DNA of 64,000 nt. Origin: Bacillota bacterium (GTDB taxonomy: Bacteria > Sysuimicrobiota > Sysuimicrobiia > Sysuimicrobiales > Segetimicrobiaceae). Location of the stretch: contig JAJPJJ010000088.1 in assembly GCA_021324295.1 (NCBI GenBank), positions 24,902 through 88,901 on the forward strand, read 5' to 3'. The notes beneath the pieces were generated by a model. It saw nothing but the letters and a program-made list of their open reading frames with translations, made no database searches and was not told the origin of the DNA. Position numbers and translations under genes: made by a program. How positions within the stretch are numbered: the first letter of the stretch is position 1; the number at the start of each line of letters is the position of its first letter. Positions 14,758 to 60,408 of this stretch are shown here, piece by piece.

Positions 14758-14765
14758 GCCGGGCG

Positions 14766-16724: not shown

Positions 16725-16789
16725 CGCTGGGATCCGGCGTTGCCGATCTCGTTCGGTACACGCGAGACAGGTGTAAGGGGGAGCACCGT

Positions 16790-17056
16790 ATGACTCAAGT
16801 CGATGAGCTGCGCCATGCCCAGATGGCGGTGGCGGTGTTAGATCCGAATCAGCTCGTTAGCGACGGACTCATGACCGTGCCCGAGGTGGCAGCGTTTCTT
16901 CGGCTCAGCCGAAGCACTGTCTACGCCTTGATGGAGAAGGGCGCGCTGCCGTATGTCCGGATCGGCGCCGCCCGCCGTGTCCCGCGGCGCGCCGTGATTG
17001 ACCTGGCTGCTGCCAACCTTCGGGGGGAGTTCCACGATCGGACCGCAAACTACTGA
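16790..17056 (+). CDS. Second excisionase-family HTH DNA-binding protein.
   Basis: The segment MTVPEVAAFLRLSRSTVYALMEKGALPYVRIGAARRVPRRAV carries the same signature. Confidence 0.6.
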   Translation: MTQVDELRHAQMAVAVLDPNQLVSDGLMTVPEVAAFLRLSRSTVYALMEKGALPYVRIGAARRVPRRAVIDLAAANLRGEFHDRTANY

Positions 17057-17091
17057 GTGCGTCGCGATGACCAGTGTGGAGGTGAACCCCC

Positions 17092-44256: not shown

Positions 44257-44320
44257 GGCGGCGCGCGGGTCGTGGGGCGCCGTGCTCGCCGGTGGCCTTT
44301 CGACGCCCGGCGCCTGAACC

Positions 44321-44344
44321 GGTTGTCAAAACGGTTTGACAACC
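44321..44344. promoter_or_regulatory. Operator copy 2, GGTTGTCAAA-ACGG-TTTGACAACC, upstream of the SBP gene at 44705.
   Basis: Same inverted half-sites TTGTCAAA/TTTGACAA with a 4-bp spacer. Confidence 0.55.
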
Positions 44345-44704
44345 GAGGCCTGCCGTACTATAATGCACCTACCCCACGGGAGCGCGTTATCGCTCTCTGA
44401 GCCGGGACGGCGGAGCCAGCCCGTTGGCACCTCCGGGACGCGACAACCCATGGCGATGTGCGCAGGCCGGAGGGGCACGGCCCGCCCCGGCGCGGCATCG
44501 TGCCCGCCTGTCTCTCGTTCGCCGCATCCGCCACGCCCGGCGATCGCCCCCTTCCGTCCGGTCCCTGCGTTGAGCACACCGGACCCGCGGACATGAGACA
44601 GCACGGCGGCGGGACTCGCGACCCGACCCCCAGCCGCCGCCTGCGCATTGGCCCTGATCGTGTGACGCCCCGAGACAGCAGCACCGGAGACAAGGAGGGA
44701 TAGC

Positions 44705-46105
44705 ATGTTGCAGCCTCGCAGCGACAGGCACCGGGCGGCGGCCGGCGTCGTGACGGCGCTCCTGCTCCTGCTCGTTGGACTGAGCCCGCTCAGCCAGTCC
44801 TCGCACGCCCAAGGCATGACGACGCTCACGTTTCTCGGGCCAGACTTCGACGAGTGGGTCGCGTTTGTGAAGGTGGCCAACCAGATCGGCAAGCCCATGG
44901 GGATCCAGGTCAAACCCGACTACCTGCCGTGGGACGATGTGTTCCAGAAGGCCCTGATCGATTCCAAGTCCGGGGTCCGGACCTGGGACTACGTGTACGT
45001 GTACAATACATGGGTGCCCGGGCTGTCCGCGGCCAAAGCCATCCTGCCGATCAACGACTTCATGACGAGCCCCGCGGCCACAAGCGCGGTCCAGCCCAAC
45101 GACTTCATCACCCTGACGACCGCGGGGCTGGAGCTCAACGGCAAGCTGTGGGCGATGCCGATGCTGGCGGCGCCGTACATGATGGCGTACCGTACGGACC
45201 TGTTCGCCAACCCGATCGAGAAGAAGGCGTTCCAGGCCAAGTACGGCTACCCGCTCGCCCTCCCCCAGACGTACAAGCAGCTCATGGACGTCGCCCAGTT
45301 CTTCACCCGCAAGGCCGGGGAGAAGTTGATGGGCAAGACGCTCGACCAGGACTTCTACGGGGTCGTCCTGGCGAACAAGAGCGGCGGGTTCCTGTTCCAC
45401 CGGTACGAGCACATCCTGGTGGCGTACGGCGCGAACCTGATCTACGATCCCAAGACGATGCAACCCACGGTGAACTCGCCGCAGGGCATCGCCGCCGCCA
45501 AGTACTACGTCGCGCTCCACAAGTACATGGAGCCCGGCAGCGAGTCGCTCACCGGCGGCGGCGCGGAGCGCATCATGGCTTCCGGCCGGGGCGCCATCGC
45601 CATGGACGCCCTCGACAACATGCTGTCGGTGCTGCCGGTGGCGAAGCTTTCCAAAGTCGTCGGCAAGATCAACTACGCCCTGCTGCCCACGCAGCTCGCG
45701 AGCCGTCCCCACGCCAACGTGGGCGACGCGAACGGCCTGGCGATCTACGCGCTCACCCAGCACCGGGACGCGGCCTTCAAGCTGGCGACTGCGGTCCTGA
45801 ACACGCAGGGCACGAAGCAGGTGATGAAGGAGTACCCGGCGCTCGTGCCCATGCGCGCGTCCGTGATCCACGATCCGGAAGTGCGGACCAACTACGCGCC
45901 CGTGTTCAACGCGATGAGCACGTTCCTCAACGGCAAGCCGTACACGGTCTTCATCCCGCCGCTCAAGGAGTGGGTGCAGGCCCAGGACATCTACGAGCAG
46001 GCGATGTCGGCCGCGATGTCGGGCCAGCAGTCCGTGGAGGACGCGCTCAACGGAGCGCAGGCCAAGGTGGTCGCTCTCTTCAAGCGGCAGGGCTACATCA
46101 AGTAA
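44705..46105 (+). CDS. ABC transporter extracellular solute-binding protein (family 1).
   Basis: Signal peptide followed by the SBP_bac_1 architecture. It heads a three-gene importer operon. Confidence 0.8.
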   Translation: MLQPRSDRHRAAAGVVTALLLLLVGLSPLSQSSHAQGMTTLTFLGPDFDEWVAFVKVANQIGKPMGIQVKPDYLPWDDVFQKALIDSKSGVRTWDYVYVYNTWVPGLSAAKAILPINDFMTSPAATSAVQPNDFITLTTAGLELNGKLWAMPMLAAPYMMAYRTDLFANPIEKKAFQAKYGYPLALPQTYKQLMDVAQFFTRKAGEKLMGKTLDQDFYGVVLANKSGGFLFHRYEHILVAYGANLIYDPKTMQPTVNSPQGIAAAKYYVALHKYMEPGSESLTGGGAERIMASGRGAIAMDALDNMLSVLPVAKLSKVVGKINYALLPTQLASRPHANVGDANGLAIYALTQHRDAAFKLATAVLNTQGTKQVMKEYPALVPMRASVIHDPEVRTNYAPVFNAMSTFLNGKPYTVFIPPLKEWVQAQDIYEQAMSAAMSGQQSVEDALNGAQAKVVALFKRQGYIK

Positions 46106-46176
46106 TGTCGTAGTGCGGCGCGGGAGCCGCCGCCCGCGGGCGGCGGCTCCCCGACGAGGCTCTTCCGGAGCGCGCG

Positions 46177-47076
46177 ATGGGAATGAAATGGGCGGCCCTC
46201 GGCAGCGGCCGCTTCTACTTCTGGATCATGGCGATGCCCGCGGTCCTCTACGTGGCCGCGTGGCGGCTGGCGCCGGCGGTCTACACGCTGTGGCTGGGCC
46301 TGCATCAGTACAACATCGTGTACGACGCCGCGCCGCGCTGGAACCATCTCGCCAACTTCCTCCAGATCCTGCGCGACGGGGCGCTCCGCCAGTCGCTCGG
46401 GCTGTCCGCGCAGTTTGCCGTCATTGCCATGACAGCCGAGGTTCTGATCGGGCTCGCCGCGGCGCTGTTTCTCGACACCGACCCGCCGGGACGGAATCTG
46501 CTGCTCGGCGTGTTCCTGATGCCGATGATCATGGCGCCCGTCGTCGTCGGCACGGCCTGGGGGACGCTCTTCGACCGGACCGTCGGCTACATCCCGTACG
46601 TGCTGCGCCTGCTGCACGGGCCGCAGCTGCAGTGGATGGCGACGCCCGGCACGGCGATGTTCGCGCTACTGGTTGCGGATGCGTGGGAGTGGGCCCCGCT
46701 CGTGACGCTGCTGTTGTTCGCCTCGCTGCAGGCCATCCCGCGCGAGCATTTCGAGGCGGCGCGCGTGGACGGCGCGTCGGGCTGGCAGCTGTTCCGGCGG
46801 ATCATCCTGCCGCAGATCACCGGGATGGTGCTCGTGGCCGCCGGCCTCCGGCTGATGGACGCGTTCCTCGAGCTGGACAAGGTCTTCGTGATGACCGGCG
46901 GAGGGCCGGGCTCGTCGACCCAGTTCGTGAGCATGTTCATCTACAAGCAGGCGTTCCAGTTCTACGAGCTCGGGTACGCGTCGGCGGTGATCACGGTGCT
47001 GCTGGCGGTCCTGGCCGTCGCGTACTGGTTCTACCTGCGCAGCTACTACCGCACCCTCGAGGCGGCCAACCTGTAA
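46177..47076 (+). CDS. Carbohydrate ABC transporter permease (MalF-type).
   Basis: Six TM helices. Contains EAARVDGASGWQLFRRIILP. Confidence 0.8.
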   Translation: MGMKWAALGSGRFYFWIMAMPAVLYVAAWRLAPAVYTLWLGLHQYNIVYDAAPRWNHLANFLQILRDGALRQSLGLSAQFAVIAMTAEVLIGLAAALFLDTDPPGRNLLLGVFLMPMIMAPVVVGTAWGTLFDRTVGYIPYVLRLLHGPQLQWMATPGTAMFALLVADAWEWAPLVTLLLFASLQAIPREHFEAARVDGASGWQLFRRIILPQITGMVLVAAGLRLMDAFLELDKVFVMTGGGPGSSTQFVSMFIYKQAFQFYELGYASAVITVLLAVLAVAYWFYLRSYYRTLEAANL

Positions 47077-47984
47077 TGGACGTCCGTTCGCTGGTCTCGG
47101 GAGAGACCGAGGGGGACGCCGGCGCGCGGGCCCTGCGCGCGAGCACCGGCGCCCGCCGCCGCTCGGCGCTCGCCGTCCGCCGCGCCCGGTGGCACCTGGC
47201 CGGCATTGTCGCGCTGCTTGCCTGGACGCTGCCGCCGTTTCTCTACCTCGTCATGCTGTCGATCAAGCCGGAGCGGATCCTGATCGACCGGTCGGCGCTG
47301 TTCTTCGTGCCGACGTTCGAGCGGTACCGCGACTTCGTCGCCAGCGGGCTGGCGGCGCCGATCTGGACCAGCCTCGTGACGTCCACGCTCGGGGGGCTCG
47401 GCACCGTCGTGCTGGCCGGCCTCGCCGCGATGACGTTCCGCTTTCTCGACTTCAAGGCGAAGACGGTCCTGTTTCTGCTGATTCTCCTGCCCCGGATGTT
47501 CCCGCCGGTGACGACCCTGATCCCGATCCAGCTGACGCTCAAGGCGCTGGGGCTCATCGACACCAAGACGGCGCTCGTCATCCTGTTCATCGGATTTGAG
47601 ATTCCGCTGGCGACGTGGATTCTGCACACCTTCTTCGCCGACGTGCCCCGCGAGCTCGCCGAGAGCGCGGCGCTCGACGGCGCCTCGCTGCCCGCGATCG
47701 TCACGAAGATCCTGCTGCCCCTCGCCGGCCCGGGACTGCTGGCCGCCTTCATCCTGAGCTTCATCTTCAACTGGAACGAGTTTCTCTTTCCGCTCATCGT
47801 CACGAGCTTCAACGCCCGCACCGGCTCGGTGGCCATCATGAGCTTCACCGCCGGCTACAAGAAACTGCAGTGGGGCGCGCTCGCCACGCTCGGGGTCATC
47901 ATGACGATTCCGGTAGTGCTGTTCGTGCTGGCGTTCCGGCAGTCGCTGGTCCGGGGCTTCACCGCCGGCGCGCTGAAAGGCTGA
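47076..47984 (+). CDS. Carbohydrate ABC transporter permease (MalG-type).
   Basis: ATG overlaps the upstream TAA (TAATG). Contains ESAALDGASLPAIVTKILLP. Confidence 0.8.
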   Translation: MDVRSLVSGETEGDAGARALRASTGARRRSALAVRRARWHLAGIVALLAWTLPPFLYLVMLSIKPERILIDRSALFFVPTFERYRDFVASGLAAPIWTSLVTSTLGGLGTVVLAGLAAMTFRFLDFKAKTVLFLLILLPRMFPPVTTLIPIQLTLKALGLIDTKTALVILFIGFEIPLATWILHTFFADVPRELAESAALDGASLPAIVTKILLPLAGPGLLAAFILSFIFNWNEFLFPLIVTSFNARTGSVAIMSFTAGYKKLQWGALATLGVIMTIPVVLFVLAFRQSLVRGFTAGALKG

Positions 47985-48008
47985 TACGTCGACAAACCGG
48001 AGGGACAC

Positions 48009-49580
48009 ATGACTGGAACACCGGAACGGAACGGCGGCCTGACCCGCCGCCGGCTTTTCCGGCTCGCCGCGGGCGCCGCGGCGGCCGGCGCTGCGCTGCC
48101 GGCCGCGGGACCGTTCGGCGAATGGGCGCTCGCCGCGGCGGCGAAGCGCGGCGGCACGCTCACGGTCGGCGTCAACACGGACCTGGTCTCGCTGGACCCC
48201 AACGACATCGTCTTCGCGAACGTGCCGATGTTCTTCCAGGTGTACAACTATCTCGTCAAGTACAGCACCACGCTGCAGCCGCGGCCCGACCTCGCGGAGT
48301 TCTGGGATCTGGCCAAGGACGGCATGAGCGTCGTGTTCCGGCTGCAGGACGGCGTCCGGACGCATTCCGGCGGAACCTTCGGCGCGGACGCACTGATCGC
48401 GAACTTCCACCGGACCAAGGCCAAGGCGACCGGCGGCGGCCTCTACAGTCGCCTCGGCGACTGGGAGGCGGCCGAGCGGGTGGACGCGCGGACCGTGCGG
48501 TTCCGGTTCTCCCATCCCCACCCCGACTACCTGGCGCAGATCGCCCGGTGGGGGATGGTCGATCCGGCGGCCTTCGCGACTGTCAAGCAGAAAGGCGGCG
48601 GGACCGGACCGTTCCGCGTCCAGGAGTGGGTGCCGGGCGACCGCGTGACGTTCGTCCGGTTCGACGGCTACTGGCAGAAGGGGCTGCCGCTGCTCGACCG
48701 CGTGGTCTGCCGCGTCTTCTCCGATCCGCAGGCGCTCGAGAACGCGTTCCAGGCCGGCACGATCGACATCGCGCACACGATCGTCAACAAGGACGTGGCG
48801 CGCCTCCGGCAGGCCGGCTTCCACGTCGAGCCGGCGCCCGTGCCGAACGAGTACTACGTCCTCACGCTCAACACCCGGCGGCCCCCGCTCGACAACATCA
48901 AGGTCCGCCAGGCGATCCAGCTGCTCGTCGACCGCGCCACGGTGTCGCGGACGGTGCTCGGCGGCGTCGCCCGGCCCATCGCGCAGATGGTGACGCCCGC
49001 CTCGCCGGGATACGATCCGCAGATTGAGACCGAGTACGCGTACAACCCCGCGAAGGCGAAGCAGCTGCTCGCCTCGGCCGGCGCCGGGCGCGGCGGACGC
49101 CTGAACTTTCTCACGTCCACGAGCACGCCGGAGCTCCCGCAGATCGCCCAGATCATCCAGGCCGACCTGCAGAAGGCGGGCCTCGACGTCGGCATCACGA
49201 TCCACGAGCCGGCCCAGTACTTCCCGGCGTACTTTGCGGGCAACTTCGACCTGAACCTCTCGTTCCTCACGCTGGCGACGATCGATCCCACGGATTTCAC
49301 GATCAGCTCGGCGTTCAGGACCGACGGAACGAACCCGTCGTGGCTCCAGACGGGGCCGCCGCCCGGGTACATCCAGGGGCTGCAGAACCTCAACGCCACG
49401 TTCAACATGCGGGAACGCTGGACGCGCCTGCGCAGCGTGATCCGGTACATCCTCGAACAGGCGTGGGCCGTGCCGGTCGCGCTGCACCTCCCGACGTACG
49501 GCCTCGGCAAGGCCGTCGAGGGGTTCGAGGTCGACCCGCAGATGCTGCTCCAACTGAGGGGGACCTGGTTGAATCGCTGA
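48009..49580 (+). CDS. ABC transporter substrate-binding protein, family 5 (Dpp/Opp-like), with a TAT signal.
   Basis: Leader RRRLFRLAAGAAAAGAALPAAG. SBP_bac_5-like length and motifs. Confidence 0.8.
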   Translation: MTGTPERNGGLTRRRLFRLAAGAAAAGAALPAAGPFGEWALAAAAKRGGTLTVGVNTDLVSLDPNDIVFANVPMFFQVYNYLVKYSTTLQPRPDLAEFWDLAKDGMSVVFRLQDGVRTHSGGTFGADALIANFHRTKAKATGGGLYSRLGDWEAAERVDARTVRFRFSHPHPDYLAQIARWGMVDPAAFATVKQKGGGTGPFRVQEWVPGDRVTFVRFDGYWQKGLPLLDRVVCRVFSDPQALENAFQAGTIDIAHTIVNKDVARLRQAGFHVEPAPVPNEYYVLTLNTRRPPLDNIKVRQAIQLLVDRATVSRTVLGGVARPIAQMVTPASPGYDPQIETEYAYNPAKAKQLLASAGAGRGGRLNFLTSTSTPELPQIAQIIQADLQKAGLDVGITIHEPAQYFPAYFAGNFDLNLSFLTLATIDPTDFTISSAFRTDGTNPSWLQTGPPPGYIQGLQNLNATFNMRERWTRLRSVIRYILEQAWAVPVALHLPTYGLGKAVEGFEVDPQMLLQLRGTWLNR

Positions 49581-49603
49581 CCCGCCGGAGGCGGTCCAGA
49601 CCG

Positions 49604-50395
49604 ATGGAACTCAGATACGAACTGATGCGGCCCCAGGAGATCGTCGCGGCGCGGACGCGCACGCCGATCGCGTACGTGCCGATCGGGCCGATGGAATGGC
49701 ACGGCCCCCACATGGCCGTCGGCATGGACATGCTGCACGCCCACACCATGGCGCTCGAGGCGGCGCGCAAGGCCGGCGGCGTCGTCCTGCCGCCCCTGCC
49801 CCTCGGCACGGAAACCTACACCGACGCCGAGCGCCTGCGCCACCGCGGGTTCGAGGGCAGCGAGCGGATCTACGGCATGGACTACCCGGGCTTCGCGCTG
49901 CCGAGCCTGTACATCGAGGAAAGCGCGTTCGCGATCATCGTGCGGGAGATCGTCCGCGGCCTGAAGCGTCAGGCCTTCAGGGTCATCGCGCTCGTGAACG
50001 GCCACGGCGCGCTCAACCACCGCAACACGCTCATGCGGGTCGCGACCGAGACGACCGAGCCGGGACGCGTGACCGTGCTGCTCGCGGGCTACCTCTACGA
50101 TGGACGGTACCGCGAGCACGCCGCGATCGGCGAGACGTCGTACCTGCTCGCTTATCATCCCGAGGCCGTCGACCTCTCGGCGCTGCCCCCGCTGCCGAAG
50201 CCGCTCGGGTACCGGGACTTCGGGGTCCTCGACCGCCAGACCGTCGTCGGGGAACCGACGCCGGATTTCACCGTCGCCCCGGAGCACGACCCGCGGCGGG
50301 CCACCCCGGAACGCGGCCGGGACGACGTGGCGTACGAGTCGGACCGGATCGCCCGGAGGGTCGCCGAGGCGCTTGCCGCGCTCCAGCCGGCGTGA
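49604..50395 (+). CDS. Creatininase-family amidohydrolase.
   Basis: Contains IGPMEWHGPHMAVGMD and LVNGHG, characteristic of the creatinine amidohydrolase family. Confidence 0.75.
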   Translation: MELRYELMRPQEIVAARTRTPIAYVPIGPMEWHGPHMAVGMDMLHAHTMALEAARKAGGVVLPPLPLGTETYTDAERLRHRGFEGSERIYGMDYPGFALPSLYIEESAFAIIVREIVRGLKRQAFRVIALVNGHGALNHRNTLMRVATETTEPGRVTVLLAGYLYDGRYREHAAIGETSYLLAYHPEAVDLSALPPLPKPLGYRDFGVLDRQTVVGEPTPDFTVAPEHDPRRATPERGRDDVAYESDRIARRVAEALAALQPA

Positions 50396-50401
50396 GCGAC
50401 G

Positions 50402-51361
50402 ATGGCCGGCGGCGGGCTCGGACGTTACCTGGCGCGGCGCGGCGTCGAGGCCGCCCTCACCCTGTTCCTGGCGTCCGTGCTGGTCTTCGCCATGGTGGCC
50501 GCGCTGCCGGGCGACCCGGCACAGGTGATCCTCGGAGACCGCGGTACGCCGGACCAGCTGCACGCCCTGCGCGCGTATCTCGGCCTCGATCAGCCGCTCC
50601 CGGTTCAATACGGACGGTGGATCGCGCGCACGCTGCGCGGAGACCTGGGGCATTCGCTCATCAACGGCGCGCCGGTGTCCGAGACCGTCGGACGCGCGCT
50701 GCCGCTCACGCTGCAGCTCTCGTTGTGGGCCTTCGCCGTGGTCGTCCTGATCGCGTTCCCCGCCGGCGTCTTCGCCGCCACGCGGGCGAGGTCGCGGCTC
50801 GCCGCGGCCCTGCGCTGGTATCACGGCTGGGCGCTGGCCGTCCCGGTCTTCTGGCTCGGCGTGCTGCTGTCGTGGTATTTCGGCGTCGTGCTGCGGTGGC
50901 TGCCGCCCTCGGGATTCGTCTCGCTCGGCGAGAGCCCGGCCGGATGGGCCCGCAGCCTCGTCCTGCCCGGCATCACGCTCGGCCTCGGCGTGGGCTCCGT
51001 CATGGCGCGCTTCGTCGAAGGCTCCCTCGCGGACGTGCTCTCGAACGACTTCGTGCGCACCGCCCGCGCGAAGGGACTTCCGAACCGCGCGGTCGTGTGG
51101 CGGCATGCGCTCGGCAACGCGCTCATTCCCATCGTCACGGTGCTGGGCATTCAGGCCGGGTTCTTCATCGGGGGCGCCGTGATCACCGAGGCGGTCTTCG
51201 CCATTCCGGGCCTCGGGAGCATGCTGTGGCGCTCGATCCTGACGCGCGACTACCTCGTGACGCAGTCCGTGATCCTGATCGGCATCGCGGCGTTCGTCGT
51301 GATCAACCTCTGTACCGACGCCCTGTACGGCCTGCTCGATCCCAGGATCAGATATCAATGA
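50402..51361 (+). CDS. ABC transporter permease (DppB/OppB-type).
   Basis: BPD_transp_1 core with the typical N-terminal RYLARR...TLFL segment. Confidence 0.8.
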   Translation: MAGGGLGRYLARRGVEAALTLFLASVLVFAMVAALPGDPAQVILGDRGTPDQLHALRAYLGLDQPLPVQYGRWIARTLRGDLGHSLINGAPVSETVGRALPLTLQLSLWAFAVVVLIAFPAGVFAATRARSRLAAALRWYHGWALAVPVFWLGVLLSWYFGVVLRWLPPSGFVSLGESPAGWARSLVLPGITLGLGVGSVMARFVEGSLADVLSNDFVRTARAKGLPNRAVVWRHALGNALIPIVTVLGIQAGFFIGGAVITEAVFAIPGLGSMLWRSILTRDYLVTQSVILIGIAAFVVINLCTDALYGLLDPRIRYQ

Positions 51362-51383
51362 GGCGCGCCGGAGAGCCCGCGGG

Positions 51384-52259
51384 GTGGTGATGGCCCTCTC
51401 GTCGAGGACGCTTGCGTCCCATGCCGCGCCCCGCCGCGAGCGGCGCCGCAGCGGGCGGACAGCCGCGGCCGACCCCGGCATCGCCTTCCTTGTCGTGGTG
51501 GCGGCCGCCGCCGTCGCGGCGCCGCTGCTGACACGCTACGGGCCCACGGACATGAGCAAGAACGCCGTGCTGGCATTCCCCTCGTGGAGCCACCTGATGG
51601 GAACGGACCAGTTCGGGCGCGACATCCTCAGCCGCCTGCTGTACGGGGCCCGGACGGCGCTGGCGGTCGGCGTGGGGGCGACGGCGATCGCCGCGGTGTG
51701 CGGCGTGCCGCTCGGCCTCTGGACCGGATTCAAGGGCGGGACGGTGGACGCGATCGCGATGCGGGGGGTGGACACCCTCATGGCCATCCCGGCGGTGCTG
51801 CTCGCGATGGCGCTCGTGGCGGTGGCCGGTCCGGGGTCGCTGAACGTCGCCGTGGCGGTGGCGGTCGTCGGTCTGCCGCAGTTCGCGCGGATCGCCCGCG
51901 CCGGCGTGCTGGCCCACCGGCGGATGGAGTACGTGGAGGCGTCGGTCGCGGCGGGGGCGCACGACGTGCGCATCGTCTTTCGCACGATCCTGCCGAACGT
52001 GCTGTCCCCGGTGCTGATCCAGATCCCCATCGGCGTCTCCCGCGCCATCCTGCTCGAGGCCAGCCTGAGCTTCCTGGGGCTGGGCACGCAGCCCCCGCAG
52101 CCGTCGTGGGGCCTGATGATCAGCGAGAGTCGCGAGTACATGTACGCGGCGCCGTGGTACGGGATCTTTCCGGGCGCCGCGATCGCGCTGACCGTGCTCG
52201 CGCTAAACCACGTCGCCGACCGGGTAAGGAGCCAATGGCGGACCGACCCGGCGCGGTAG
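51384..52259 (+). CDS. ABC transporter permease (DppC/OppC-type).
   Basis: Contains NAVLAFPSWSHLMGTDQFGRDILSRLLYGART, the DppC N-terminal signature. Confidence 0.8.
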   Translation: MVMALSSRTLASHAAPRRERRRSGRTAAADPGIAFLVVVAAAAVAAPLLTRYGPTDMSKNAVLAFPSWSHLMGTDQFGRDILSRLLYGARTALAVGVGATAIAAVCGVPLGLWTGFKGGTVDAIAMRGVDTLMAIPAVLLAMALVAVAGPGSLNVAVAVAVVGLPQFARIARAGVLAHRRMEYVEASVAAGAHDVRIVFRTILPNVLSPVLIQIPIGVSRAILLEASLSFLGLGTQPPQPSWGLMISESREYMYAAPWYGIFPGAAIALTVLALNHVADRVRSQWRTDPAR

Positions 52260-52302
52260 CGCGGCCCCCGGCCGGGGTGCCGGAGACGCGAGGTGATGCC
52301 GA

Positions 52303-53697
52303 ATGAGGTTTTTCGGGCACGCCGACGTGATCGTCGTCGGCGGCGGGACGGCCGGAATCGTGGCGGCGATCGCGAGCGCCCGAACCGGGACGCCGACGCT
52401 GCTCGTGGAGCAGTCGAGCGGCCTCGGGGGAACGAGCACGCGCGGCCTCATGAACTGCTTCGTCACCTTCCACGACGCCGGAGGCCGGCAGGCCGTGCGC
52501 GGCATTGCGCAGGAGATCGTGGACCGGCTGGTGCAGGCGAAGGGCTCGGCGGGACACACCGCGGATACCATGGGCGAGTGTGTGACCCGCGTCCTGTTCG
52601 ACCCATTCGTGCTCGGGAACGTGCTGTTTGAAATGGCGGGCGAGGCGGGCGTCGAGCTCCTGCTCCACACCGCCGTGGCCGACGTGCTGATGGAGGCCGA
52701 CCGTCTCACCGGGCTGGTCCTGTACAACAAGGGCGGGTTGCAGGTCGCGACGTGCCGCGTGTGCATCGATGCCAGCGGCGACGGCGACGTGGCGGCGGCG
52801 GCCGGAGCGCCCTTCGAGCAGGCGGCGCGGGGAGAACTGCAGCCCATCACGCTGATGTACCGGCTCGGCGGCGTCGACATCGACCGGTGGGCGGACTTCG
52901 TCCGCGAACGACCGCGGGCGTTCGAGATGACGCGCGTGCCGGAGGATCCCCGCGCGGAGGGGCTCGGGATCATGAGCCTGACGTATTATCAGCCGTTCCG
53001 GGATGCGGTGCGGGCCGGCGAGTTGCCCCGCGGGATATCCGGCGAGCAGGTGTGGCTGCTGTGCGGACGCGAGGAGGCGCGCCAGGGCGTGGTGACCGTC
53101 AACGGGACGCGGGTGGAAGGCCTGGACGGCACGAATCCACGGGAACTGACCCGCGCGGAGGCCGAGGCGCGGCGCCAGGCCGCGGGGCTCACGGCGTGGC
53201 TGCGGCGCCACGTCCCCGGGTTCGAGCAATGCTATATCTATCAGACCGCGCAGCAGCTCGGCGTCCGGGAGACGCGGCGCATCCTTGGAGACTACGTCCT
53301 GACCGAAGACGACGTCTTGACGGCGCGCGCGTTCGATGACGCGATCGCCAAGGGGGCCACCCCGATCGACATCCACGGCGGCGCCGACGCCGGGGGCGAG
53401 AACTACTGGATCAAAACCGCGGATTCGGGCATTTTGGCGTACGATATCCCCTACCGCTGCCTCGTGCCGCGGAAGGTCGAACACCTGCTCGTCGCGGGGC
53501 GGTGCATCTCGACGACCCACAGGGCGCACGGCGCGACCAGGATGCAGCCGGTATGCATGGCCACGGGCCAGGCGGCGGGCACCGCGGCGGCGCTCGCGGC
53601 CGCGCGCGCGGTGGCGCCGCGCGACCTCGACGTGCAGCTGTTGCAGAAGACGCTGATCCAGGCCGGCCAGGTGATTCGCGAGGAGCAGATGGCATGA
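52303..53697 (+). CDS. FAD-dependent oxidoreductase, paralog 3.
   Basis: Contains DVIVVGGGTAGIVAAIA, DASGDGDVA and GVRETRRILGDY. Confidence 0.75.
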   Translation: MRFFGHADVIVVGGGTAGIVAAIASARTGTPTLLVEQSSGLGGTSTRGLMNCFVTFHDAGGRQAVRGIAQEIVDRLVQAKGSAGHTADTMGECVTRVLFDPFVLGNVLFEMAGEAGVELLLHTAVADVLMEADRLTGLVLYNKGGLQVATCRVCIDASGDGDVAAAAGAPFEQAARGELQPITLMYRLGGVDIDRWADFVRERPRAFEMTRVPEDPRAEGLGIMSLTYYQPFRDAVRAGELPRGISGEQVWLLCGREEARQGVVTVNGTRVEGLDGTNPRELTRAEAEARRQAAGLTAWLRRHVPGFEQCYIYQTAQQLGVRETRRILGDYVLTEDDVLTARAFDDAIAKGATPIDIHGGADAGGENYWIKTADSGILAYDIPYRCLVPRKVEHLLVAGRCISTTHRAHGATRMQPVCMATGQAAGTAAALAAARAVAPRDLDVQLLQKTLIQAGQVIREEQMA

Positions 53698-53720: not shown

Positions 53721-55060
53721 GTGCGAATGGACGCGCAAAGGCTGCGGGTGGCGCACTACATCAACCAGTTCTTTGCGGGGATCGGCAGCGAGGAGCGCGC
53801 GGATACGCCGCCCGCCGTCAAGGACGGTCCGGTCGGTCCCGGGCGGGCGATGCAGGCGGCCCTCGGCCCGCACGGCGCCGTGGTCTCCACCATGGTGTGC
53901 GGCGACAGCTATTTCAACGAACAGATCGACTCGCCGCCGAAGCGGTGCGCGCGTGGCTCGGCGCGCAGCGGCCCGACGTGGTGATCGCCGGGCCGGCGTT
54001 CGCCGCGGGCCGGTACGGGCGCGCGTGCGTCGAAGTGTGCCGCATCGCGGCGGACCTCGGGATCCCGGTCGTGACCGGCATGCATCCCGAGAACCCGGGC
54101 CTGCTGATGTACCGGGCGGCGTACGTCGTGCCGACGGCCGGCAACGCCGCCGGCATGAGTGCGGCGCTCGGCGCGATCGTCCCGCTCGCCCGAAAGCTCG
54201 GCGCGCGGCTCCCCGTCGGCCCCGCGGAAGAAGATGGCTATCTGCCGCGCGGCATCCGGCGGCCCGGGACGCGGGCGCGGCCCGGGGCCCGGCGGGCCGT
54301 CGACATGCTCGTCGCCAAGCTCGGCGGACGGCCGTTTCGAACCGAGCTGCCGGTCGAGGGCTACGAGGCCGTCGCGCCCGCGCCACCGGTCGCGGACCTG
54401 CTGCACGCGACGATCGCGGTGGTGACGACCGGCGCGATCGTGCCGAAGGGCAATCCGGACCACCTCAAGCGGTGCAGCGAGACGCGGTGGCGGCGCTACG
54501 AGCTCGCGGGCCGCCGGCGCCTCACGCCGGACGAGTTCGAGTGCGTCCACGGCGGCTTCTACAACGTCCCGGCGTCGGAGAACCCCAACGTTGTGCTGCC
54601 GCTCGACGCGCTGCGCGAGCTCGAGGACCGCGGCGCCTTCGCGCGGCTGGCCGACTTCTACTGCACCACCACCGGCAACGATCAGCGGTTCGCGGACTGC
54701 GTGCGCAACGGCAAGGAGATCGCCGAGCTGCTCTGGCAGGAGCGCATCGACGGCGTGCTGCTGGTCGCCCCCTGAGGGTCGTGCAATCGTTGCGGCGCAA
54801 CGATCAGCAAAGAGATCGAGCGGCGGCGGATCCCGGTCGCCGTGATCAGCGCGCTGCCGCCGCTCGCGATGCAGGCCGGCGCGAACCGCGTCGTCCAGGG
54901 CGTCAAGATCGAGCACGTCTGCGGCGATCCCGCGCTGCCGGCCGAGGAGGACGGCGCGGTGCGCCGGCGGCTGGTGGAGCGCGGGCTGCGGGCGCTTGCG
55001 ACCGCGGTGGAGCGTCCCACGCTGTTCGAAGACGACGGCGCGGTGGTGACGGCGCGATGA
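53721..55060 (+). pseudogene. Second GrdB-family selenoprotein gene. It has an in-frame UGA at 54773-54775 plus SECIS, and an apparent -1 frameshift near 53931.
   Basis: Frame A (53721..) reads ...VCGDSYFNEQID. Frame B (53897..) continues AAEAVRAWLGAQRPDVVIAG... Both are colinear with the intact minus copy. After LLVAP-UGA, the sequence GSCNRCGATISKEIE... is followed by the identical hairpin ATCGTTGCGGCGCAACGAT at 54786-54804. Confidence 0.6.
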
Positions 55061-56363
55061 CGGCCTCGATGAATCTGACCGTGGGAACGTTCCCCGTCCG
55101 CGAGGTGGCCTTCGGCGCCCCGGCGGGATGGAAGGACGGGCGGCTCGTCGTCGACGCGGACCGCGTGGCGGCGCTCGTACGGGAAGACCGCCGGATCCGC
55201 CGCGTCGCCGTGGACCTGGTCCGGCCGGGCGAGGCGGCGCGGATCGTGCAGGCGCGCGACGTGATCGAACCGCGCGTCAAGGTCGACGGCCCCGGACACA
55301 CCTACCCGGGCATCTGCGGCCACGCCCCGGACACCGTCGGCGACGGCGTGACACACCGCTACGCCGGCTTCGGCGTGCTGATCGCGTCCGAGGCGCTGCC
55401 GCACATCCGGCGCACCGTCAGCGCGGCCACGGACAGCCTCATCGACATGTCGGGGCCGGGCGCCGTGACCGTGTACAGCACGCTGCGGTACGTCGTGCTG
55501 ACGATCGAGACCTGCCGGATCTCGACCTGACGTCGTGGAACGACGCGCTGCGCGGGGCCGGCCACCGCGTCGCGGCCGACCTCGCGGAGCTCGTGCGCGG
55601 GCAGACGCCGCCGGACCGGCGTGCGTACCGGCTGGCGCCGCCCGCCGCCGGGCGTCCGCGGGTCGTGCACGTGCACACGCTCAACGCCTCGATGGTCCCG
55701 GGGATCGGGACCGGCATCTACGGGTATACGCAGCACGCCCTGCCGGTGCTGCTGCACCCGAACGAGATCCTCGGGCGACGCCGTCGTCACGTACCCCGGC
55801 AAGTGCACGTGGCTGCACGTGAACAACCCGGTGCTCGACGCGCTGTACGAACGCGACGGGACGGACGTCGTCTGGCTCGGCTCGATCATCTCGCGCACGC
55901 GGTGGGCGGGCTCGACGAGAAGCGGCTGAGCGCGTACCAGACCGCCAAACTGGCCGCGATGCTCGGCGCCGACGGCGCGCTCGTCACCTGGAACCACGGC
56001 GGCAACGACCTCCTCGAGGTGATGATGACGATTCAAAGCCTCGAGCGCGCGGGCATCAAGACGACGTTCCTCACCATCGAATCGGACATCAAGGTGGTCC
56101 GGATGACGCCCGCGCTCGCGGAGACGAGTACCACGGAGCCGTCGCTGCTGTTCAGCGTGCCGGAGGCCGACGCGATCGTCAGCACGGGCACCCTCGCGCC
56201 GGCCGATCCGCTGCCGGCGATGCCGCGGGTCATCGGCGGCCGCGAGGTCGTCTTCAACCAGGAGCGCCCGGACGTGCGCACGCCGGCGGCCGGTCCGCTG
56301 GACCTCGAGGCGGTGTCCGGCGCGTACTCACCGATCTTCGACACTTCGACAACTACGGCTTGA
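55057..56363 (+). pseudogene. Second GrdE-like gene, with at least three frame changes relative to the minus copy.
   Basis: Segments MTASMNLTVGTFPV...LTIET, then DLDLTSWNDALRGAGH..., then GDAVVTYPGKCTWLHVNNPV (ORF 55621..55929), then RLSAYQTAKLAAMLGADGALVTWNHGGNDL... lie in different frames. The first shift falls at a CC/CCC run near 55515. Confidence 0.55.
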
Positions 56364-56378
56364 GGTGTCAGAGCTACC

Positions 56379-57835
56379 TTGACTACTGAGCGCGCGAGAT
56401 CAGTCCCGAGCGGCATCCGGCCCGTCATCCGCGCGGCGCGGTTCGCGATCGCCCACGCGCCGGGCCTGATTCCGTCCGGCTCCAAGCCGCGGCGGGAGCT
56501 CGCAGCACGCGGCGCGGCCGAGCGCGAGGCGCTGCTCACGCACCTGCGGTCCTTCGAGGACGCCGTGCGGTATCCGCCGCACCAGGTGATGCTCGGAACG
56601 CTCCCGCCCGAGGCGCTGCGCGGGATTCCACGGCCCTGGCACGACCGGCCGGTGGACGGGGCGCGCGCGGAGGGGCCCGGCGGTCGCATGCTCGACGAGA
56701 TGGAGTTCTATGCCTGGCTGGCGCGGGCGGATACGGCGAGCCTGCTCTACGTCACCCCGGAGTTCGCGCGGACGCTCGACACTTCGGCGCGCCCGAGCGT
56801 CTCCAGACGATGGCCGCCGCCGACCTGGCCCGCGCCGTCGAACGCGGCGCGGAGCCGCTGCGCCGCGCGCCGAACGAGACGGTCGGCGCCGTCGTCCCCG
56901 CGCACGAGCAGGACGAGTCCCTCGCGGCGCCCGTGCTGCTGGAGAACCTCGCCGCCAAGGTCACAGGCGGCCTCGCCCTGCGGACGCTCCTCGAGGCCGT
57001 TCCCGCCGCCGATGCGCCAATCGACTACCTGATCGGATGCGGCGAGGAGGCCGTGGGCGACCGGTATCAGCGCGGCGGCGGCAACCTCGCGAAAGCCATG
57101 GGAGAACTCGCCGGCGTCCGAACCGCCGGGGCGTCGGATGTCAAGTCGTTCTGCGCGAGCCCGCTGCACGCGCTCCTGGTGGCCGGGGCCTTGATCGCCG
57201 GCGGTGTGTACCGGCGCGTGGTCGTGGTCGCGGGCGGGTCGCTCGCGAAGCTGGGCATGAAGTACCGCGGGCACCTGGCCGCCGGCTATCCGGTGCTGGA
57301 AGACGTTATTGTCGGCGCCGCGATCGACGTCGTGCCGGACGACGGACGCAGTCCCGTCCTCCGCCTCGACGCCGCCGCGGTGCACCGGGTCGGCGACGGC
57401 GCGGCCCCCCACCAGATGGCCCAGGTGCTGTCCGCGGCGCCGCTGCGGGCCGCCGGCCTGCGGCTGTCCGACGTGGACCGGTACGCCGTCGAACTGCATA
57501 ACCCGGACATCACCGAGCCCGCGGGATCCGGCGACGTGCCGTACCGCAACTACCAGATGATCGCCGCGCTGGCCGCGCACGCCGGGGAGATCGAGCGTTC
57601 GGCGATGGACCGCTTCGTCGAGGCGCACGGGATGCCGGGGTTCTCGCCGACGCAGGGGCACATCGCGTCGGCCGTGGCGTATTTGCCGCACGCCATCGCC
57701 GGCCTCACGGAAGGCCGGCTGCAACGGGTGCAGCTCGTGGCCAAGGGCACATGGCGGACGGCGCCAGCCTGCTGCTCGAACGAAACGGGGTGCCGCCGGC
57801 CGGAGGGAGGCCCGCATGATCGATCTGCACGATAA
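56379..57835 (+). pseudogene. Second GrdC-like gene, with a frameshift near 56800 and a disrupted 3-prime end.
   Basis: 56379 frame (...FYAWLARADTASLLYVTPEFARTLD) then 56810 frame (...VPAHEQDESLAAPVLLENLAAK...FCASPLHALLVAGALIAGGVYRRVVVVAGGSLAKLG...) match the minus copy. The C-terminus diverges into the IS remnant. Confidence 0.5.
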
Positions 57836-58308
57836 GCTCGTCCTCGCGCTCGGCGAGCGCGACGGCATTCCGGCAGCAACGCCGCCGCCAGCCACCGGTG
57901 CTTCTGGTTGCTGGTGCGCCACCGATCCACTTTCCCCGTCCGCATCTCGACCCCGCTGAACACCGACTCCAGCATGTTCGTCGTCGCCAGCGTCTGCCGG
58001 AGGGTCGGCCCCACCCCGAGCCGGTGCACGGTGAGCGCCTCCTCCGGCCCCTCGTCCAAACTGCGCAGTGCGGACTCGTTGAGCCGCCGGAGGTCCGCCC
58101 GGAGCTCCTCGAATGCGGCTTTCGCCTCCGCGTAGGTCGGCTGCGCGTACGCCCGCGCGAGCTTGCCGCGCCACACCGCCTGCTGGCTCTTGGGGAGGTA
58201 CGCGATGACGTTTTCGCGCTTGTGGTACTGACACCGCTGAACGGGGGTCTCCGGGCCGAAGACTTCCTCCACGCCGGCCTGCAGCCCCTCGCTCCCATCG
58301 ATGATCAC
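57835..58308 (-). mobile_element. IS256-family transposase remnant (C-terminal half only).
   Basis: The segment MIIDGSEGLQAGVEEVFGPETPVQRCQYHKRENVIAYLP...TTNMLESVFSGVEMRT matches the IS256/mutator DDE region. The N-terminal half is absent. The 3-prime extent is approximate. Confidence 0.55.
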
Positions 58309-58320
58309 CAGTAGCCCCGA

Positions 58321-59196
58321 GGTATCGTCAAGTGGTGTGGAAACGGGAAAGGCGGTCGGTTACCCTCTTGGTGAGCAAAACCAGAGACCGGGTTGAGGGC
58401 CCGGAAGGAGGGGAACCGCCGCCATGCACCAGCACACCACAGTCGCGCCCGCGTCGTCAAGCATCGTCTGGGACAATTTGGACACTTGGGTCGCCGTGGC
58501 CGGATGCAGCGATGGTCGCAAGGTCGTGGTCGCCGTGACGCCCGGGGCGCGGGAGTCAGTGGAGAGCTGGGCCGCGCTGCTCCGGGACCTGCGGGCGCGC
58601 GGGATGCCGTGTCCCCGGCTGGTGATCGGCGATGGGCACCTGGGGATCTGGGGCGCGCTGCGCCAGGTGTACCCCGAGGCGGCCGAGCAGCGCTGCTGGA
58701 ACCACCGGCTGCTCAACCTCCTGGACAAACTGCCCCGGACGCAGCACGCCGCGGCGAAGCCGCTGCTGACCGCGATCGCGTACGCGCCCACCCGCGCGGA
58801 GGCTGAGCAACGACGCGCGGCATTCGAGACGTGGTGCCGCCGGCACGGCTATGACCACGCCGCCGTGGCCGTGAGCCGGGATTGGGAGCGGTTCGTGACC
58901 TTCTATCGGTTCCCGCGGGAGCACTGGCGGCACCTGCGGACGTCGAACATCGTGGAGTCGCCGCTGGCGGCGCTGCGCCTGCGCACCGATGCGGCCAAGC
59001 GATTCAAGCGCGTCGCCAACGCCACCGCCGTGATCTGGAAGATGCTCATGGTCGCCGAGACCCGGTTCCGTCGGCTCAACGCCCCGGAGCTCGCGAAGCG
59101 CGTCTACCTGGGCATCGAGTACCAAGACGGAGTCGAGGTCACCACCAAGCAGGGGGCCGTCGCGTGAGGCCCGTTTCCACACCACTTGACGATACC
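58321..59196 (+). mobile_element. Internally deleted IS256-family element bounded by perfect 27-bp inverted repeats.
   Basis: Left IR GGTATCGTCAAGTGGTGTGGAAACGGG (58321-58347). Right IR is its exact reverse complement (59170-59196). The interior encodes only the C-terminal two thirds of a transposase (58424..59167). Confidence 0.7.
58424..59167 (+). CDS. Truncated IS256-family transposase ORF inside the element.
   Basis: The segment ...VVVAVTPGARESVESWAALLRDLRARGMPCPRLVIGDGHLGIWGALRQVYPEAAEQRCWNHRLLNL...RTSNIVES is colinear with the IS256 DDE core. It lacks the N-terminal DNA-binding third. Confidence 0.6.
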   Translation: MHQHTTVAPASSSIVWDNLDTWVAVAGCSDGRKVVVAVTPGARESVESWAALLRDLRARGMPCPRLVIGDGHLGIWGALRQVYPEAAEQRCWNHRLLNLLDKLPRTQHAAAKPLLTAIAYAPTRAEAEQRRAAFETWCRRHGYDHAAVAVSRDWERFVTFYRFPREHWRHLRTSNIVESPLAALRLRTDAAKRFKRVANATAVIWKMLMVAETRFRRLNAPELAKRVYLGIEYQDGVEVTTKQGAVA

Positions 59197-59469
59197 TCAC
59201 CCGGACGACGCAGGCTTCAAGCGCACGCCGCCGCTCTCCACAGCATCGTCCACCCGCGCGGGCCGATCTATCGAACTAGGATTCCGCCTGTGATTGCAGT
59301 CAGGCTGCGACAGGTGTTTCGTCCCCAATTTGTCACTCCCTCTGTTTTCTTCACAATATTCACAGCAGATTCATATCGCTTGTCTATGATCGCTTTGCAA
59401 CAAGGTCTTGAGGGGCATCGCGCGACCGATCAGAGAGCCGTTCGAACCGGGACAACAGAGAGGAGCGTA

Positions 59470-60408
59470 GTGTGCGCAGCCGGCGTATCAGCCGCAACGC
59501 CAGCAGCCGGACCCGCGGCAGTTCCCGCCGGCCTACCAGCCGCAGCCGCGTCAGCCACAGCTGGGATGAGCCCGCTGGGCGGACCCCGCCGGAACGCGCG
59601 CCGGAGGCGATGGGGACACGTCGTCGGGACCGCGCTCCTGCTCGCGTGGACGCTCCCGCCGTTCCTCTACCTCGTGATGCTGTCGCTCAAGCCCGAGCGG
59701 ATCCTGATCGACAGGTCCCAGGTCCTCTTCTGGCCCACCCTGGAACGGTACCGGGATTTCATCGCGAGCGGGCTGGGGCTGCCGATCTGGAACAGCCTGG
59801 TCACGTCGACGCTCGGGTCGATGGGGACGCTGGTCCTCGGCGGCCTCGCCGCCCTGACGTTCAGCTTTCTCGAGTTCAGGGGCAAGGCCCTCTTGTTCCT
59901 CGTGATCCTGCTCCCGAGGATGTTCCCACCTGTCACGACGCTGATCCCGATCCAGTTGATGCTGAAGGGGCTGGGCCTCATCGACACCAGGCTGGCCCTT
60001 ATCATCTTGTTCACGGGGTTCGAGATCCCGCTGGCGATCTGGGTTTTGCGGACGTTCCTCGACGAGATCCCGCGCGAGCTGGCGGAGAGCGCGGCGCTCG
60101 ACGGTGCGTCCTTCCCGGCGATCATCGCCAAGGTGATCCTGCCGTTGTCGGGACCGGGGCTGCTGGCCGCGTTCATCCTGAGCTTCATCTTCAACTGGAA
60201 CGAGTTCCTGTTTCCCCTCATCGTGACGAGCTTCAACGCGCGGACCGGCGCCGTGGCCATTATGAGCTTCACCGCCGGGTACAAGAAGCTGCAGTGGGGG
60301 GCCCTCGCGACCCTCGGCGTGGTGATGACGATCCCCGTGATCCTCTTCGTGCTGGCGTTCCGCGGGTCGCTGGTTCGAGGCTTTACAGCCGGCGCCCTGA
60401 AAGGGTGA
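59470..60408 (+). CDS. Orphan carbohydrate ABC permease (MalG-type), a close paralog of the 47076..47984 gene.
   Basis: GTG start after GAGAGGAG. From TLPPFLYLVMLS onward it is near-identical to the 47076 permease. No SBP or partner permease is adjacent. Confidence 0.7.
   Translation: MCAAGVSAATPAAGPAAVPAGLPAAAASATAGMSPLGGPRRNARRRRWGHVVGTALLLAWTLPPFLYLVMLSLKPERILIDRSQVLFWPTLERYRDFIASGLGLPIWNSLVTSTLGSMGTLVLGGLAALTFSFLEFRGKALLFLVILLPRMFPPVTTLIPIQLMLKGLGLIDTRLALIILFTGFEIPLAIWVLRTFLDEIPRELAESAALDGASFPAIIAKVILPLSGPGLLAAFILSFIFNWNEFLFPLIVTSFNARTGAVAIMSFTAGYKKLQWGALATLGVVMTIPVILFVLAFRGSLVRGFTAGALKG

Follow-up and report, generated by a model that had tools for sequence, protein, structure and literature searches.

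Does a bacterium with two sets of Grd-like selenoprotein genes have two working reductase systems, or is one of them dead? The question arises from a stretch of 64,000 nucleotides (the window, by which the whole of the DNA analysed is meant), where one set lies intact on the minus strand and a second, with broken reading frames, lies on the plus strand. The preliminary description of this DNA allowed either a decaying duplicate of the operon or a region with many indel errors. The plus-strand region is very probably a real, recently inactivated second Grd-like selenoprotein operon, dead and pseudogenised in an ordinary way. The intact cluster, which serves as the reference, is arranged as follows.

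35428-30823, minus strand: intact paralogous grdB-grdE-grdC-grdA-like cluster
35428-34127, minus strand: grdB-like gene, with the selenocysteine (Sec) UGA at 34393-34391
34118-32781, minus strand: grdE-like gene
32791-31271, minus strand: grdC-like gene
31290-30823, minus strand: grdA, with the Sec UGA at 31161-31159 (CFV-U)

Six other assemblies contain this cluster with 99.5-100% identity. Its GrdB-like protein matches Pfam GRDB (4.9e-122) and TIGR01918 (466 bits, above the cutoff of 65), and its GrdC-like protein matches NCBIfam NF040746 (525 bits, above the cutoff of 450). Positions 53727-57874 of the plus strand form a colinear paralogue of the cluster (74.6% nucleotide identity), in which three genes precede the remains of grdA.

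53727..55060, plus strand: grdB-like pseudogene (selenoprotein B family), 1-nt deletion at 53932/3, Sec UGA kept
55069..56389, plus strand: grdE-like pseudogene (Gly_reductase family), four deletions
56379..57819, plus strand: grdC-like pseudogene (reductase component C beta), two deletions

The grdE-like gene has an alternative ATG at 55057 that overlaps the grdB stop codon. The similarity between the two sets persists on re-alignment, where a 4.1-kb blastn alignment (74.6% identity) joins 53741-57749 to minus-strand positions 35426-31384, and the paralogous set described earlier is thereby confirmed. After frame correction, the GrdB-like, GrdE-like and GrdC-like products are respectively 72%, 78% and 69% identical in amino acids to those of the intact copy.

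The selenocysteine signals of the plus-strand grdB-like gene are preserved. Its UGA (54773-54775) falls at the position of the Sec codon in alignments with the intact minus copy and the orthologues, and lies in a U-G-S-C motif of the U-x-x-C type. The SECIS-type hairpin (54786-54804, ATCGTTGC-GGC-GCAACGAT) lies 13 nt 3′ of the UGA and is the same in both copies, as had been claimed; its stem is unchanged across 13 related loci, and the hairpin does not vary in 15 sequences. An in-frame UGA in a U-x-x-C motif, with a hairpin just 3′ of it, is what a GrdB-family subunit of a Grd operon should have, and the plus copy has it. Rfam gave no match in the region.

Glycine/sarcosine/betaine reductase (Grd) operons are known from Clostridia and their relatives, where the order is grdE-grdA-grdB-grdC-grdD, often with trxA/trxB. 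The genes studied here resemble them in having a GRDB-family selenoprotein with UGSC and a downstream hairpin, a GrdE-like subunit of the Gly_reductase family (5e-75), a GrdC that reaches the NCBIfam equivalog cutoff and, in intact copies, a GrdA with the CFVU motif. They differ in gene order (B-E-C-A) and in their neighbours, which are ADH, GFO/IDH/MocA, enolase-superfamily, FAD-oxidoreductase and ABC-transporter genes rather than Stickland genes; the plus copy differs further in being, to judge from its sequence, non-functional. Component C of the known systems consists of GrdC and GrdD. GrdC is present here, and a tblastn search (E <= 1e-3) found no GrdD in the window, in loci L001-L014 or within 10 kb at the 13 related loci L015-L027. 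Scores against the substrate-specific equivalogs for glycine, sarcosine and betaine fall below the cutoffs for both GrdB (glycine GrdB 429 bits against 602, sarcosine GrdF 473 against 800, betaine GrdH 412 against 775) and GrdE (GrdG 166 against 780).

In canonical GrdE, the Cys of GN-C-VS becomes a pyruvoyl group (Cys242 in C. difficile; PMC9908766). The corresponding column (Cys241 in L070) holds Ala here, in GD-A-VV, in place of the Asn-Cys cleavage site; the motif could be located in 136 of 137 retrieved homologues, and these, like both window copies, have GD followed by A, S, M or T. Eight residues downstream of the canonical column is an invariant Cys (YPGKC), to which the self-cleavage site may have shifted. 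A PDB sequence search with the GrdE-like protein returned no match, and neither literature searches on Grd in Rokubacteria nor two papers on CSP1-3 yielded any mention of Grd genes.

Intact orthologues of the plus copy occur on two related MAG contigs (L024 and L020) and a metagenome contig (L094), all with full grdA and both Sec codons. Amino acid identity to L024 is 93% for the GrdB-like and 90% for the GrdC-like product, and for the GrdE-like product it is 93% to L024, 93% to L094 and 90% to L020. The polarity of the frame breaks is set by these three relatives, against which there are seven window-specific indels: all are deletions, with no insertions, and none is a multiple of three.

53932, plus strand: 1-nt deletion, grdB-like
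55511, plus strand: 1-nt deletion, grdE-like
55773, plus strand: 14-nt deletion, grdE-like, DGAIA plus 1 nt lost
55903, plus strand: 1-nt deletion, grdE-like
56339, plus strand: 1-nt deletion, grdE-like
56776, plus strand: 1-nt deletion, grdC-like
57748, plus strand: 25-nt deletion, grdC-like

Five are thus of 1 nt, one of 14 nt and one of 25 nt, distributed as one in grdB, four in grdE and two in grdC; together with a truncation of grdA they disrupt every gene of the set. The preliminary description had counted at least five frame changes, at 53931, about 55515, about 55775, about 55905 and about 56800, which correspond to 53932, 55511, 55773, 55903 and 56776; it had missed the breaks at 56339 (-1) and 57748 (-25). 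Nucleotide alignment with the paralogue is too noisy to place lesions, containing dozens of compensating gaps of 1-2 nt, and a protein-guided frameshift alignment with the paralogue placed most breaks while producing artefacts at 55049 and 57793 and moving 56776 to 56802. Final positions were taken instead from the alignment with close orthologues. A 14-nt gap at the grdB/grdE junction (55057-55063) was considered as an eighth lesion and rejected as benign variation, since intact L094 shares this state and L020 has a 24-nt gap. By eye, the orthologue alignment offers no convincing microhomology at the 14- and 25-nt deletions.

The fourth gene has been lost in a different manner, through a junction with insertion sequence (IS) remnants.

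57816..57874, plus strand: grdA 5′ stub of 19 codons + 2 nt, MIDLHDKLVLALGERDGIPA, where homology to the grdA of L024 and L020 stops at 57874
57875..58318, minus strand: element A, internal fragment of an IS256-family transposase gene, both ends gone
58319..59198, plus strand: element B, internally deleted IS256-family derivative with perfect 29-bp terminal inverted repeats

The set had been said to lack grdA and to end in a transposase fragment. The bulk of grdA is indeed gone, its Sec codon and CFVU motif included, though the stub survives; there is an IS256 remnant at the end, though it is one of two different remnants, with the stub fused to the first and the second following. Element A has no stop codon and no inverted repeat and is missing the N-terminal ~190-230 residues. 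It matches positions 230-352 of 379 in Pfam Transposase_mut (6.8e-13) and 191-335 of 338 in NCBIfam IS256 (NF033543), and it is because the fragment is partial that its score (103.6 bits) stays under the cutoff of 150. Element B has its repeats at 58319-58347 and 59170-59198 and a transposase ORF at 58424-59167 that is short of ~145-180 N-terminal residues; it passes the NF033543 cutoff (158.7 bits) and matches the Pfam family at 3.7e-31. No target-site duplication (8-9 bp) is present around it. Both remnants thus belong to the IS256/Mutator DDE transposase type, and the combination of inverted repeats, target duplication and full-length transposase gene is found in neither; unlike IS256-family elements proper, neither is autonomous. 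The two are only distantly similar to each other (about 25% amino acid identity, estimated by eye). Since the fragment next to grdA is internal to a transposase gene, the junction marks the breakpoint of a deletion and not the end of an inserted element.

Could the frame breaks be sequencing or assembly errors in a functional second operon? High-GC DNA is error-prone on some platforms, substitutions on the window branch have the dN/dS of a functional gene (below), and in one related MAG assembly, L027, the HSPs of grdB and grdE are split, possibly through errors of this kind. Against this, at least seven assemblies, produced by three pipelines (JGI, four NCBI GCA and three Logan per-run assemblies), contain the same sequence with zero gaps over the region or the part of it that they cover. 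Three of them (L007, L009 and L012) have one private SNP each, the three SNPs lying at different sites (55116, 55458 and 55593), and the assemblies are therefore not copies of one consensus. Two lesions are as long as 14 and 25 nt, most lie outside homopolymers and a single one turns GGGG into GGG. The lesions are restricted to the grd genes: on the same contig there are no breaks in the 4.6-kb minus copy or in the seven flanking genes at 46177-53697 (7.5 kb), which are colinear and gap-free against the orthologous locus in L024. In addition, grdA and the three genes after it have been physically lost. The gapless assemblies, the distinct SNPs and the unbroken flanks lead us to reject indel error, which is extremely improbable; at assembly level, the lesions are real in the DNA.

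A second possibility is that the plus copy arose by recent duplication of the minus operon within this genome and began to decay soon afterwards. In its favour, gene order and SECIS hairpin are common to the two copies, which are separated by 18 kb on a single contig. Their divergence argues otherwise, with dS 0.78 and dN 0.20 and no exact shared stretch as long as 31 nt, as do the closer ties of the plus copy to other genomes. It has 90.7% DNA identity to L024 with conserved synteny, which extends from 45206 to exactly 57874, and L020 is likewise syntenic with the window. In a bootstrap tree built with a distance method from concatenated genes, L024 and L020 form a group with the plus copy (100%), and the minus copy lies outside a clade in which other species are included (96%). 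The two copies are old paralogues, not a recent duplicate, and dS together with the tree grouping therefore indicates that a long-standing second operon has died specifically in this lineage. Recent duplication is very improbable; of the decaying duplicate proposed earlier, pseudogenisation stands and fresh duplication does not.

An allele that is intact, or that carries a subset of the lesions, was not found: the full-length GrdE homologues retrieved reach 93.7% identity at most, and only the window's own 157-aa fragment reaches 100%. A scan of metagenome contigs across the first deletion site matched nothing, including the window's own allele, and that collection therefore does not contain this organism. 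The same kind of scan with the SECIS region matched L094 alone, intact and with 89% DNA identity.

A third possibility is that the fragments are still expressed and useful, either as split subunits or with frames restored by frameshifting or transcriptional slippage. In a variant, the Sec-containing part of GrdB (residues 70-445) would work with partners from the minus copy. In support, the grdB-like frame is open after 53932 through the UGA to its natural stop, the hairpin is intact and dN/dS is unrelaxed. The first ~69 GrdB codons, which include the conserved N-terminus, are nevertheless out of frame with the rest; there are four breaks in grdE and two in grdC; the 14- and 25-nt losses are beyond any recoding mechanism; slippery motifs are absent at the lesion sites; and no intact relative has such an architecture. 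This explanation is very improbable. No full-length product is possible from any of the four plus-strand genes, which by their sequence are presumably non-functional.

The pattern of substitution bears on when the operon died. On the window branch, 84 substitutions are synonymous and 31 nonsynonymous, compared with 115/35 and 123/45 on intact lineages (Fisher p = 0.57 and 1.0), with no sign of the relaxed selection and raised dN/dS that mark a pseudogene. No stop codon has arisen by substitution in the plus copy, and the UGA and SECIS hairpin are kept. Because dN/dS on the window branch matches that of intact relatives, the inactivation is very recent. Taken alone, unrelaxed dN/dS is the pattern of a functional gene, and it is reconciled with the lesions only by assuming very recent inactivation. 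Substitutions in the neutral phase are estimated at ~4 (upper bound ~22), against seven indels, or ~0.5 (at most ~3) per indel. Mutation-accumulation studies give ~7-10 substitutions per indel. Simple neutral decay would not readily give seven indels for about four neutral substitutions.

In other respects the region resembles bacterial pseudogenes that form by small frameshifting deletions and IS truncation: its indels are deletion-biased, as in bacterial pseudogenes generally (Kuo & Ochman 2010, PMC2916853), IS remnants lie at its edge, adjacent genes are lost and an intact paralogue exists. It departs from them in the absence of a detectable rise in dN/dS and in its few neutral substitutions per indel. 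It also departs from a survey of Burkholderia pseudogenes, in which the insertion:deletion ratio is about 0.76-0.79 (PMC6054270), in that all seven indels here are deletions.

The history of the locus can be outlined as follows. In the ancestors of this lineage there were probably two Grd-type selenoprotein reductase modules, old paralogues of each other, both with grdB-grdE-grdC-grdA and similar accessory genes. The plus-type module lies at an ancestral position that is syntenic with its position in related species, where it is intact. An IS256-associated rearrangement probably removed grdA from codon 20 on, leaving two transposase remnants. The same rearrangement probably took the downstream MR_MLE, Zn-ADH and GFO/IDH/MocA genes; L024 and L020 have MR_MLE-ADH-GFO genes 3′ of grdA, and the window has homologues only beside the minus cluster. 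Seven small deletions, which may have come before or after the rearrangement, broke the frames of grdB, grdE and grdC. Redundancy or loss of a substrate may be why decay was tolerated, and any Grd-type function that the cell still keeps is presumably carried by the intact minus module. The deletions may represent a burst rather than clock-like neutral decay, possibly caused by error-prone repair around an IS-mediated break.

For annotation, the region comprises four pseudogenes and two IS256 remnants, not a second functional selenoprotein system; public automatic gene calls give about eight short 'GRDB/Gly_reductase/DUF5940' ORFs for it. The loss is of an ordinary kind, with unusually many deletions for few base changes. 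It is a clean, well-polarised case in which an operon has died very recently and can be compared with orthologues and a paralogue that are still intact, and a single example of how, in a soil bacterium of high GC content, small deletions may accumulate faster than substitutions. Members of the Grd-like clade are frequent among high-GC soil MAGs that carry the labels ANGP1, Methylomirabilota/Rokubacteria and Armatimonadota, and a non-exhaustive literature search found no mention of the clade. Its members are without the canonical pyruvoyl Cys and without linked grdD, and lie among sugar-acid or inositol-type genes; they may therefore reduce a substrate other than glycine, sarcosine or betaine. 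That the clade consists of uncharacterised Grd-type reductases with another substrate and that the decay was also a burst of small deletions is, as a joint proposition, possible but rather doubtful. If it is true, the two modules may differ in substrate, and the lineage would then just have lost one of its substrates. The broader value of the locus lies in the intact clade to which it points, a widespread Grd-like selenoprotein system.

The window, with a G+C content of about 72%, carries on its minus strand an intact grdB-grdE-grdC-grdA-like cluster:

35428–34127, minus strand, grdB-like gene with in-frame UGA at 34393–34391
34118–32781, minus strand, grdE-like gene
32791–31271, minus strand, grdC-like gene
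31290–30823, minus strand, grdA with in-frame UGA at 31161–31159

The encoded proteins match the Pfam families GRDB (4.9e-122), Gly_reductase (5e-75), DUF5940 (5e-53) and GRDA (2e-51). NCBIfam names the third product, at 525 bits against a cutoff of 450, 'reductase complex component C subunit beta' and that of grdA, at 175 bits against 130, 'selenoprotein A'. GrdB and GrdE are placed at broad subfamily level only, short of the equivalog cutoffs for glycine, sarcosine and betaine. Judged by these profiles, the family assignments of this cluster are firm. Elsewhere in the window, Rfam RF01051 identifies a c-di-GMP-I riboswitch aptamer (13304–13397, minus strand; 56.9 bits, gathering score 35, E = 1.8e-8), and ARAGORN calls a 95-nt tRNA-Thr (GGT) at 12303–12397 (minus strand), unusually long for this type, that overlaps a mechanical ORF (12184–13335, minus strand); the call is doubtful.

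A plus-strand set of Grd-like genes aligns with this cluster by blastn at 74.6% identity across 4.1 kb, with frame-corrected amino acid identities of 72%, 78% and 69% for the GrdB-, GrdE- and GrdC-like products. The selenocysteine codon of the minus copy aligns with a UGA at 54773–54775, and the hairpin ATCGTTGC-GGC-GCAACGAT starts 13 nt past it; the hairpin is the same in both copies, and across 13 related loci the middle loop base alone differs. The paralogous set with identical UGA and SECIS hairpin noted in the preliminary description is therefore real, and the region is a true colinear paralogue.

Alignment to the diverged minus copy was dropped as too noisy for exact placement of lesions, and orthologues were therefore sought. 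When one genome per species was scanned, 13 close loci emerged, and two of these hold intact orthologues of the plus copy: the related MAG contigs L024 (DASYXS010000077.1; amino acid identity of GrdB 93%, GrdE 93%, GrdC 90%) and L020 (DATGHZ010000008.1; 86%, 90% and 83%). In both, grdA is complete, including its Sec codon, and synteny between L024 and the window runs from 45206 to exactly 57874. A metagenome scan added a third intact orthologue, L094 (Ga0070731_10000959). Another related locus, L027 (8686–11336; a MAG contig labelled Candidatus Rokubacteria), has grdB and grdE genes of its own that align in pieces, which may reflect sequencing indels or independent decay. Multiple alignment of the window with L024, L020 and L094 yielded seven window-specific indels, all of them deletions and none a multiple of three:

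53932, plus strand, grdB, −1
55511, plus strand, grdE, −1
55773, plus strand, grdE, −14
55903, plus strand, grdE, −1
56339, plus strand, grdE, −1
56776, plus strand, grdC, −1
57748, plus strand, grdC, −25

At least five frame changes had been proposed; all five positions were right, and two further lesions had been missed. The plus copy contains no substitution-born stop codons. Where grdB meets grdE, a gap of 14 nt was ruled out as a lesion and is benign, because intact L094 has it too.

Many indel errors in the region had been offered as the alternative to decay. Exact-protein look-ups recovered the locus from JGI 3300005532, four NCBI metagenome assemblies and three Logan per-run assemblies, which match the window without gaps and at ≥99.95% identity over the part covered by each. 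Single SNPs differ between assemblies (L007 at 55593, L009 at 55116, L012 at 55458), which are therefore not copies of one consensus. Most lesions lie outside homopolymers, that at 55903 alone shortening a four-G run; on the same contig the 4.6-kb minus copy has no frame breaks, and seven flanking genes (46177–53697) each give one gap-free alignment to L024 (79–95% amino acid identity). Together these comparisons lead us to reject indel error as the source of the frame breaks, short of raw-read inspection. Although no exact match of ≥31 nt exists between the two window copies, three separate runs gave Logan contigs that stop at one and the same position, 54562, inside the grdB-like pseudogene; co-occurring relatives such as L094 may produce a graph branch at this point.

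By the Nei–Gojobori method, dS is 0.78 and dN 0.20 between the plus and minus copies, and likewise between the intact L024 orthologue and the minus copy. In a neighbour-joining tree of concatenated GrdB, GrdE and GrdC (1264 columns), L024 is the sister of the plus copy (100%) and L020 joins next (100%), while the minus copy falls outside a clade (96%) that takes in loci of three other species. The two copies are thus old paralogues. Of the decaying duplicate suggested earlier, pseudogenisation stands; the dS of 0.78 and the grouping with L024 and L020 point to an old duplication and show that the plus copy is not a fresh duplicate. Decay itself is another matter. Counted with L020 as outgroup and L024 and L094 as ingroup, changes on the window branch number 84 synonymous and 31 nonsynonymous, compared with 115/35 and 123/45 on the intact lineages (Fisher p = 0.57 and 1.0); a separate three-taxon count gave 116/43 versus 119/38 (p = 0.61). 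The nonsynonymous excess of about 3 (upper bound near 16) translates into about 4 (at most about 22) substitutions gained while neutral, and inactivation is very recent.

Mutation-accumulation work gives about one indel per 7–10 substitutions; the plus copy, whose seven deletions stand beside about four neutral substitutions, has many more indels per substitution. There is no insertion among its seven indels, whereas insertion:deletion ratios of 0.76–0.79 were found when Burkholderia pseudogenes were surveyed (PMC6054270). Small deletions could be common in this lineage, they could have struck as a burst near the IS-associated break, or additional hits could have been favoured.

The 3′ end of the plus copy adjoins two different IS256-type remnants, in agreement with the transposase fragment originally described:

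57875–58318, minus strand, element A, internal IS256-type transposase match fused to grdA codon 20
58319–59198, plus strand, element B, a different IS256-family element adjoining element A, with perfect 29-bp terminal inverted repeats

Nor is grdA wholly absent, as had been thought: a 5′ stub of 19 codons and 2 nt remains (57816–57874), at which L024 and L020 homology stops. Since element A matches internal transposase only (Pfam positions 230–352 of 379; NCBIfam 191–335 of 338), with neither stop codon nor terminal repeat, its junction with grdA marks the breakpoint of a deletion rather than the end of an insertion. Element B, an 880-bp deletion derivative, encodes a transposase without its first ~145–180 residues and has no target-site duplication. 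JGI contig Ga0070739_10000260 breaks off within it (window 58607), a sign that element B is repeated in the genome and might be mobilised in trans. After grdA, L024 and L020 continue with enolase-superfamily (MR_MLE), Zn-ADH and GFO/IDH/MocA genes, whose window homologues lie beside the minus cluster only. Beyond element B lie an unrelated ADH and an orphan ABC permease gene (59566–60408) lacking a partner permease or binding protein, preceded by low-G+C DNA (64%; 59200–59560). The permease gene is ~80% identical in DNA to that at 47214–47984 and is probably a further rearrangement relic. At least two or three rearrangements have occurred at this end.

The ancestral operon is Grd-type and differs from canonical Grd in several respects. 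Its order is B-E-C-A. With the window and L001–L027 covered, neither the window nor the 10 kb around any of the 13 related loci contains a homologue of grdD (component C alpha, PlsX-like), and no thioredoxin genes were seen in called-gene lists around both clusters. The C. difficile GrdE peptide 242–266 bears an N-terminal Cys-derived pyruvoyl group (PMC9908766); in canonical GrdE the residue converted to this cofactor is the Cys of the motif GN-C-VS, which is Cys241 in L070, a Fervidicola locus. GrdE-like proteins throughout the present clade carry GD-A-VV instead, among them those of both window copies, L016, L020 and L024:

33400–33370, GrdE GD-A-VV site of the minus copy
55773–55800, GrdE GD-A-VV site of the plus copy

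Of 137 homologues retrieved (P0001–P0137), the motif could be located in 136, all of which have A, S, M or T in this column, and an invariant Cys lies eight residues past it (YPGKCTW); processing may be either shifted or absent. Both modules neighbour Zn-ADH, GFO/IDH/MocA, MR_MLE enolase-superfamily, FAD-dependent oxidoreductase and sugar-type ABC transporter genes, the plus-type module additionally a creatininase-family gene and a peptide-type ABC system:

27713–28822, 35438–37554 and 42856–53697, window, accessory genes
13307–17366, L024, accessory genes

This context is not one of Stickland fermentation, and given the operon order, missing grdD, replaced Cys and neighbours, no substrate is assigned to the operon. 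Relatives are labelled ANGP1 'NP_x', Methylomirabilota/Rokubacteria or Armatimonadota MAGs; by such names only, the organism may belong to NP-7, a high-GC surface-soil family described in the PNAS paper on phylum CSP1-3 (PMC11962464).

Overall, the plus copy is best read as a paralogous operon that recently became a pseudogene and is accompanied by IS debris, an ordinary phenomenon; its decay, rich in indels, and the Grd-like clade with its non-canonical features might repay more work.
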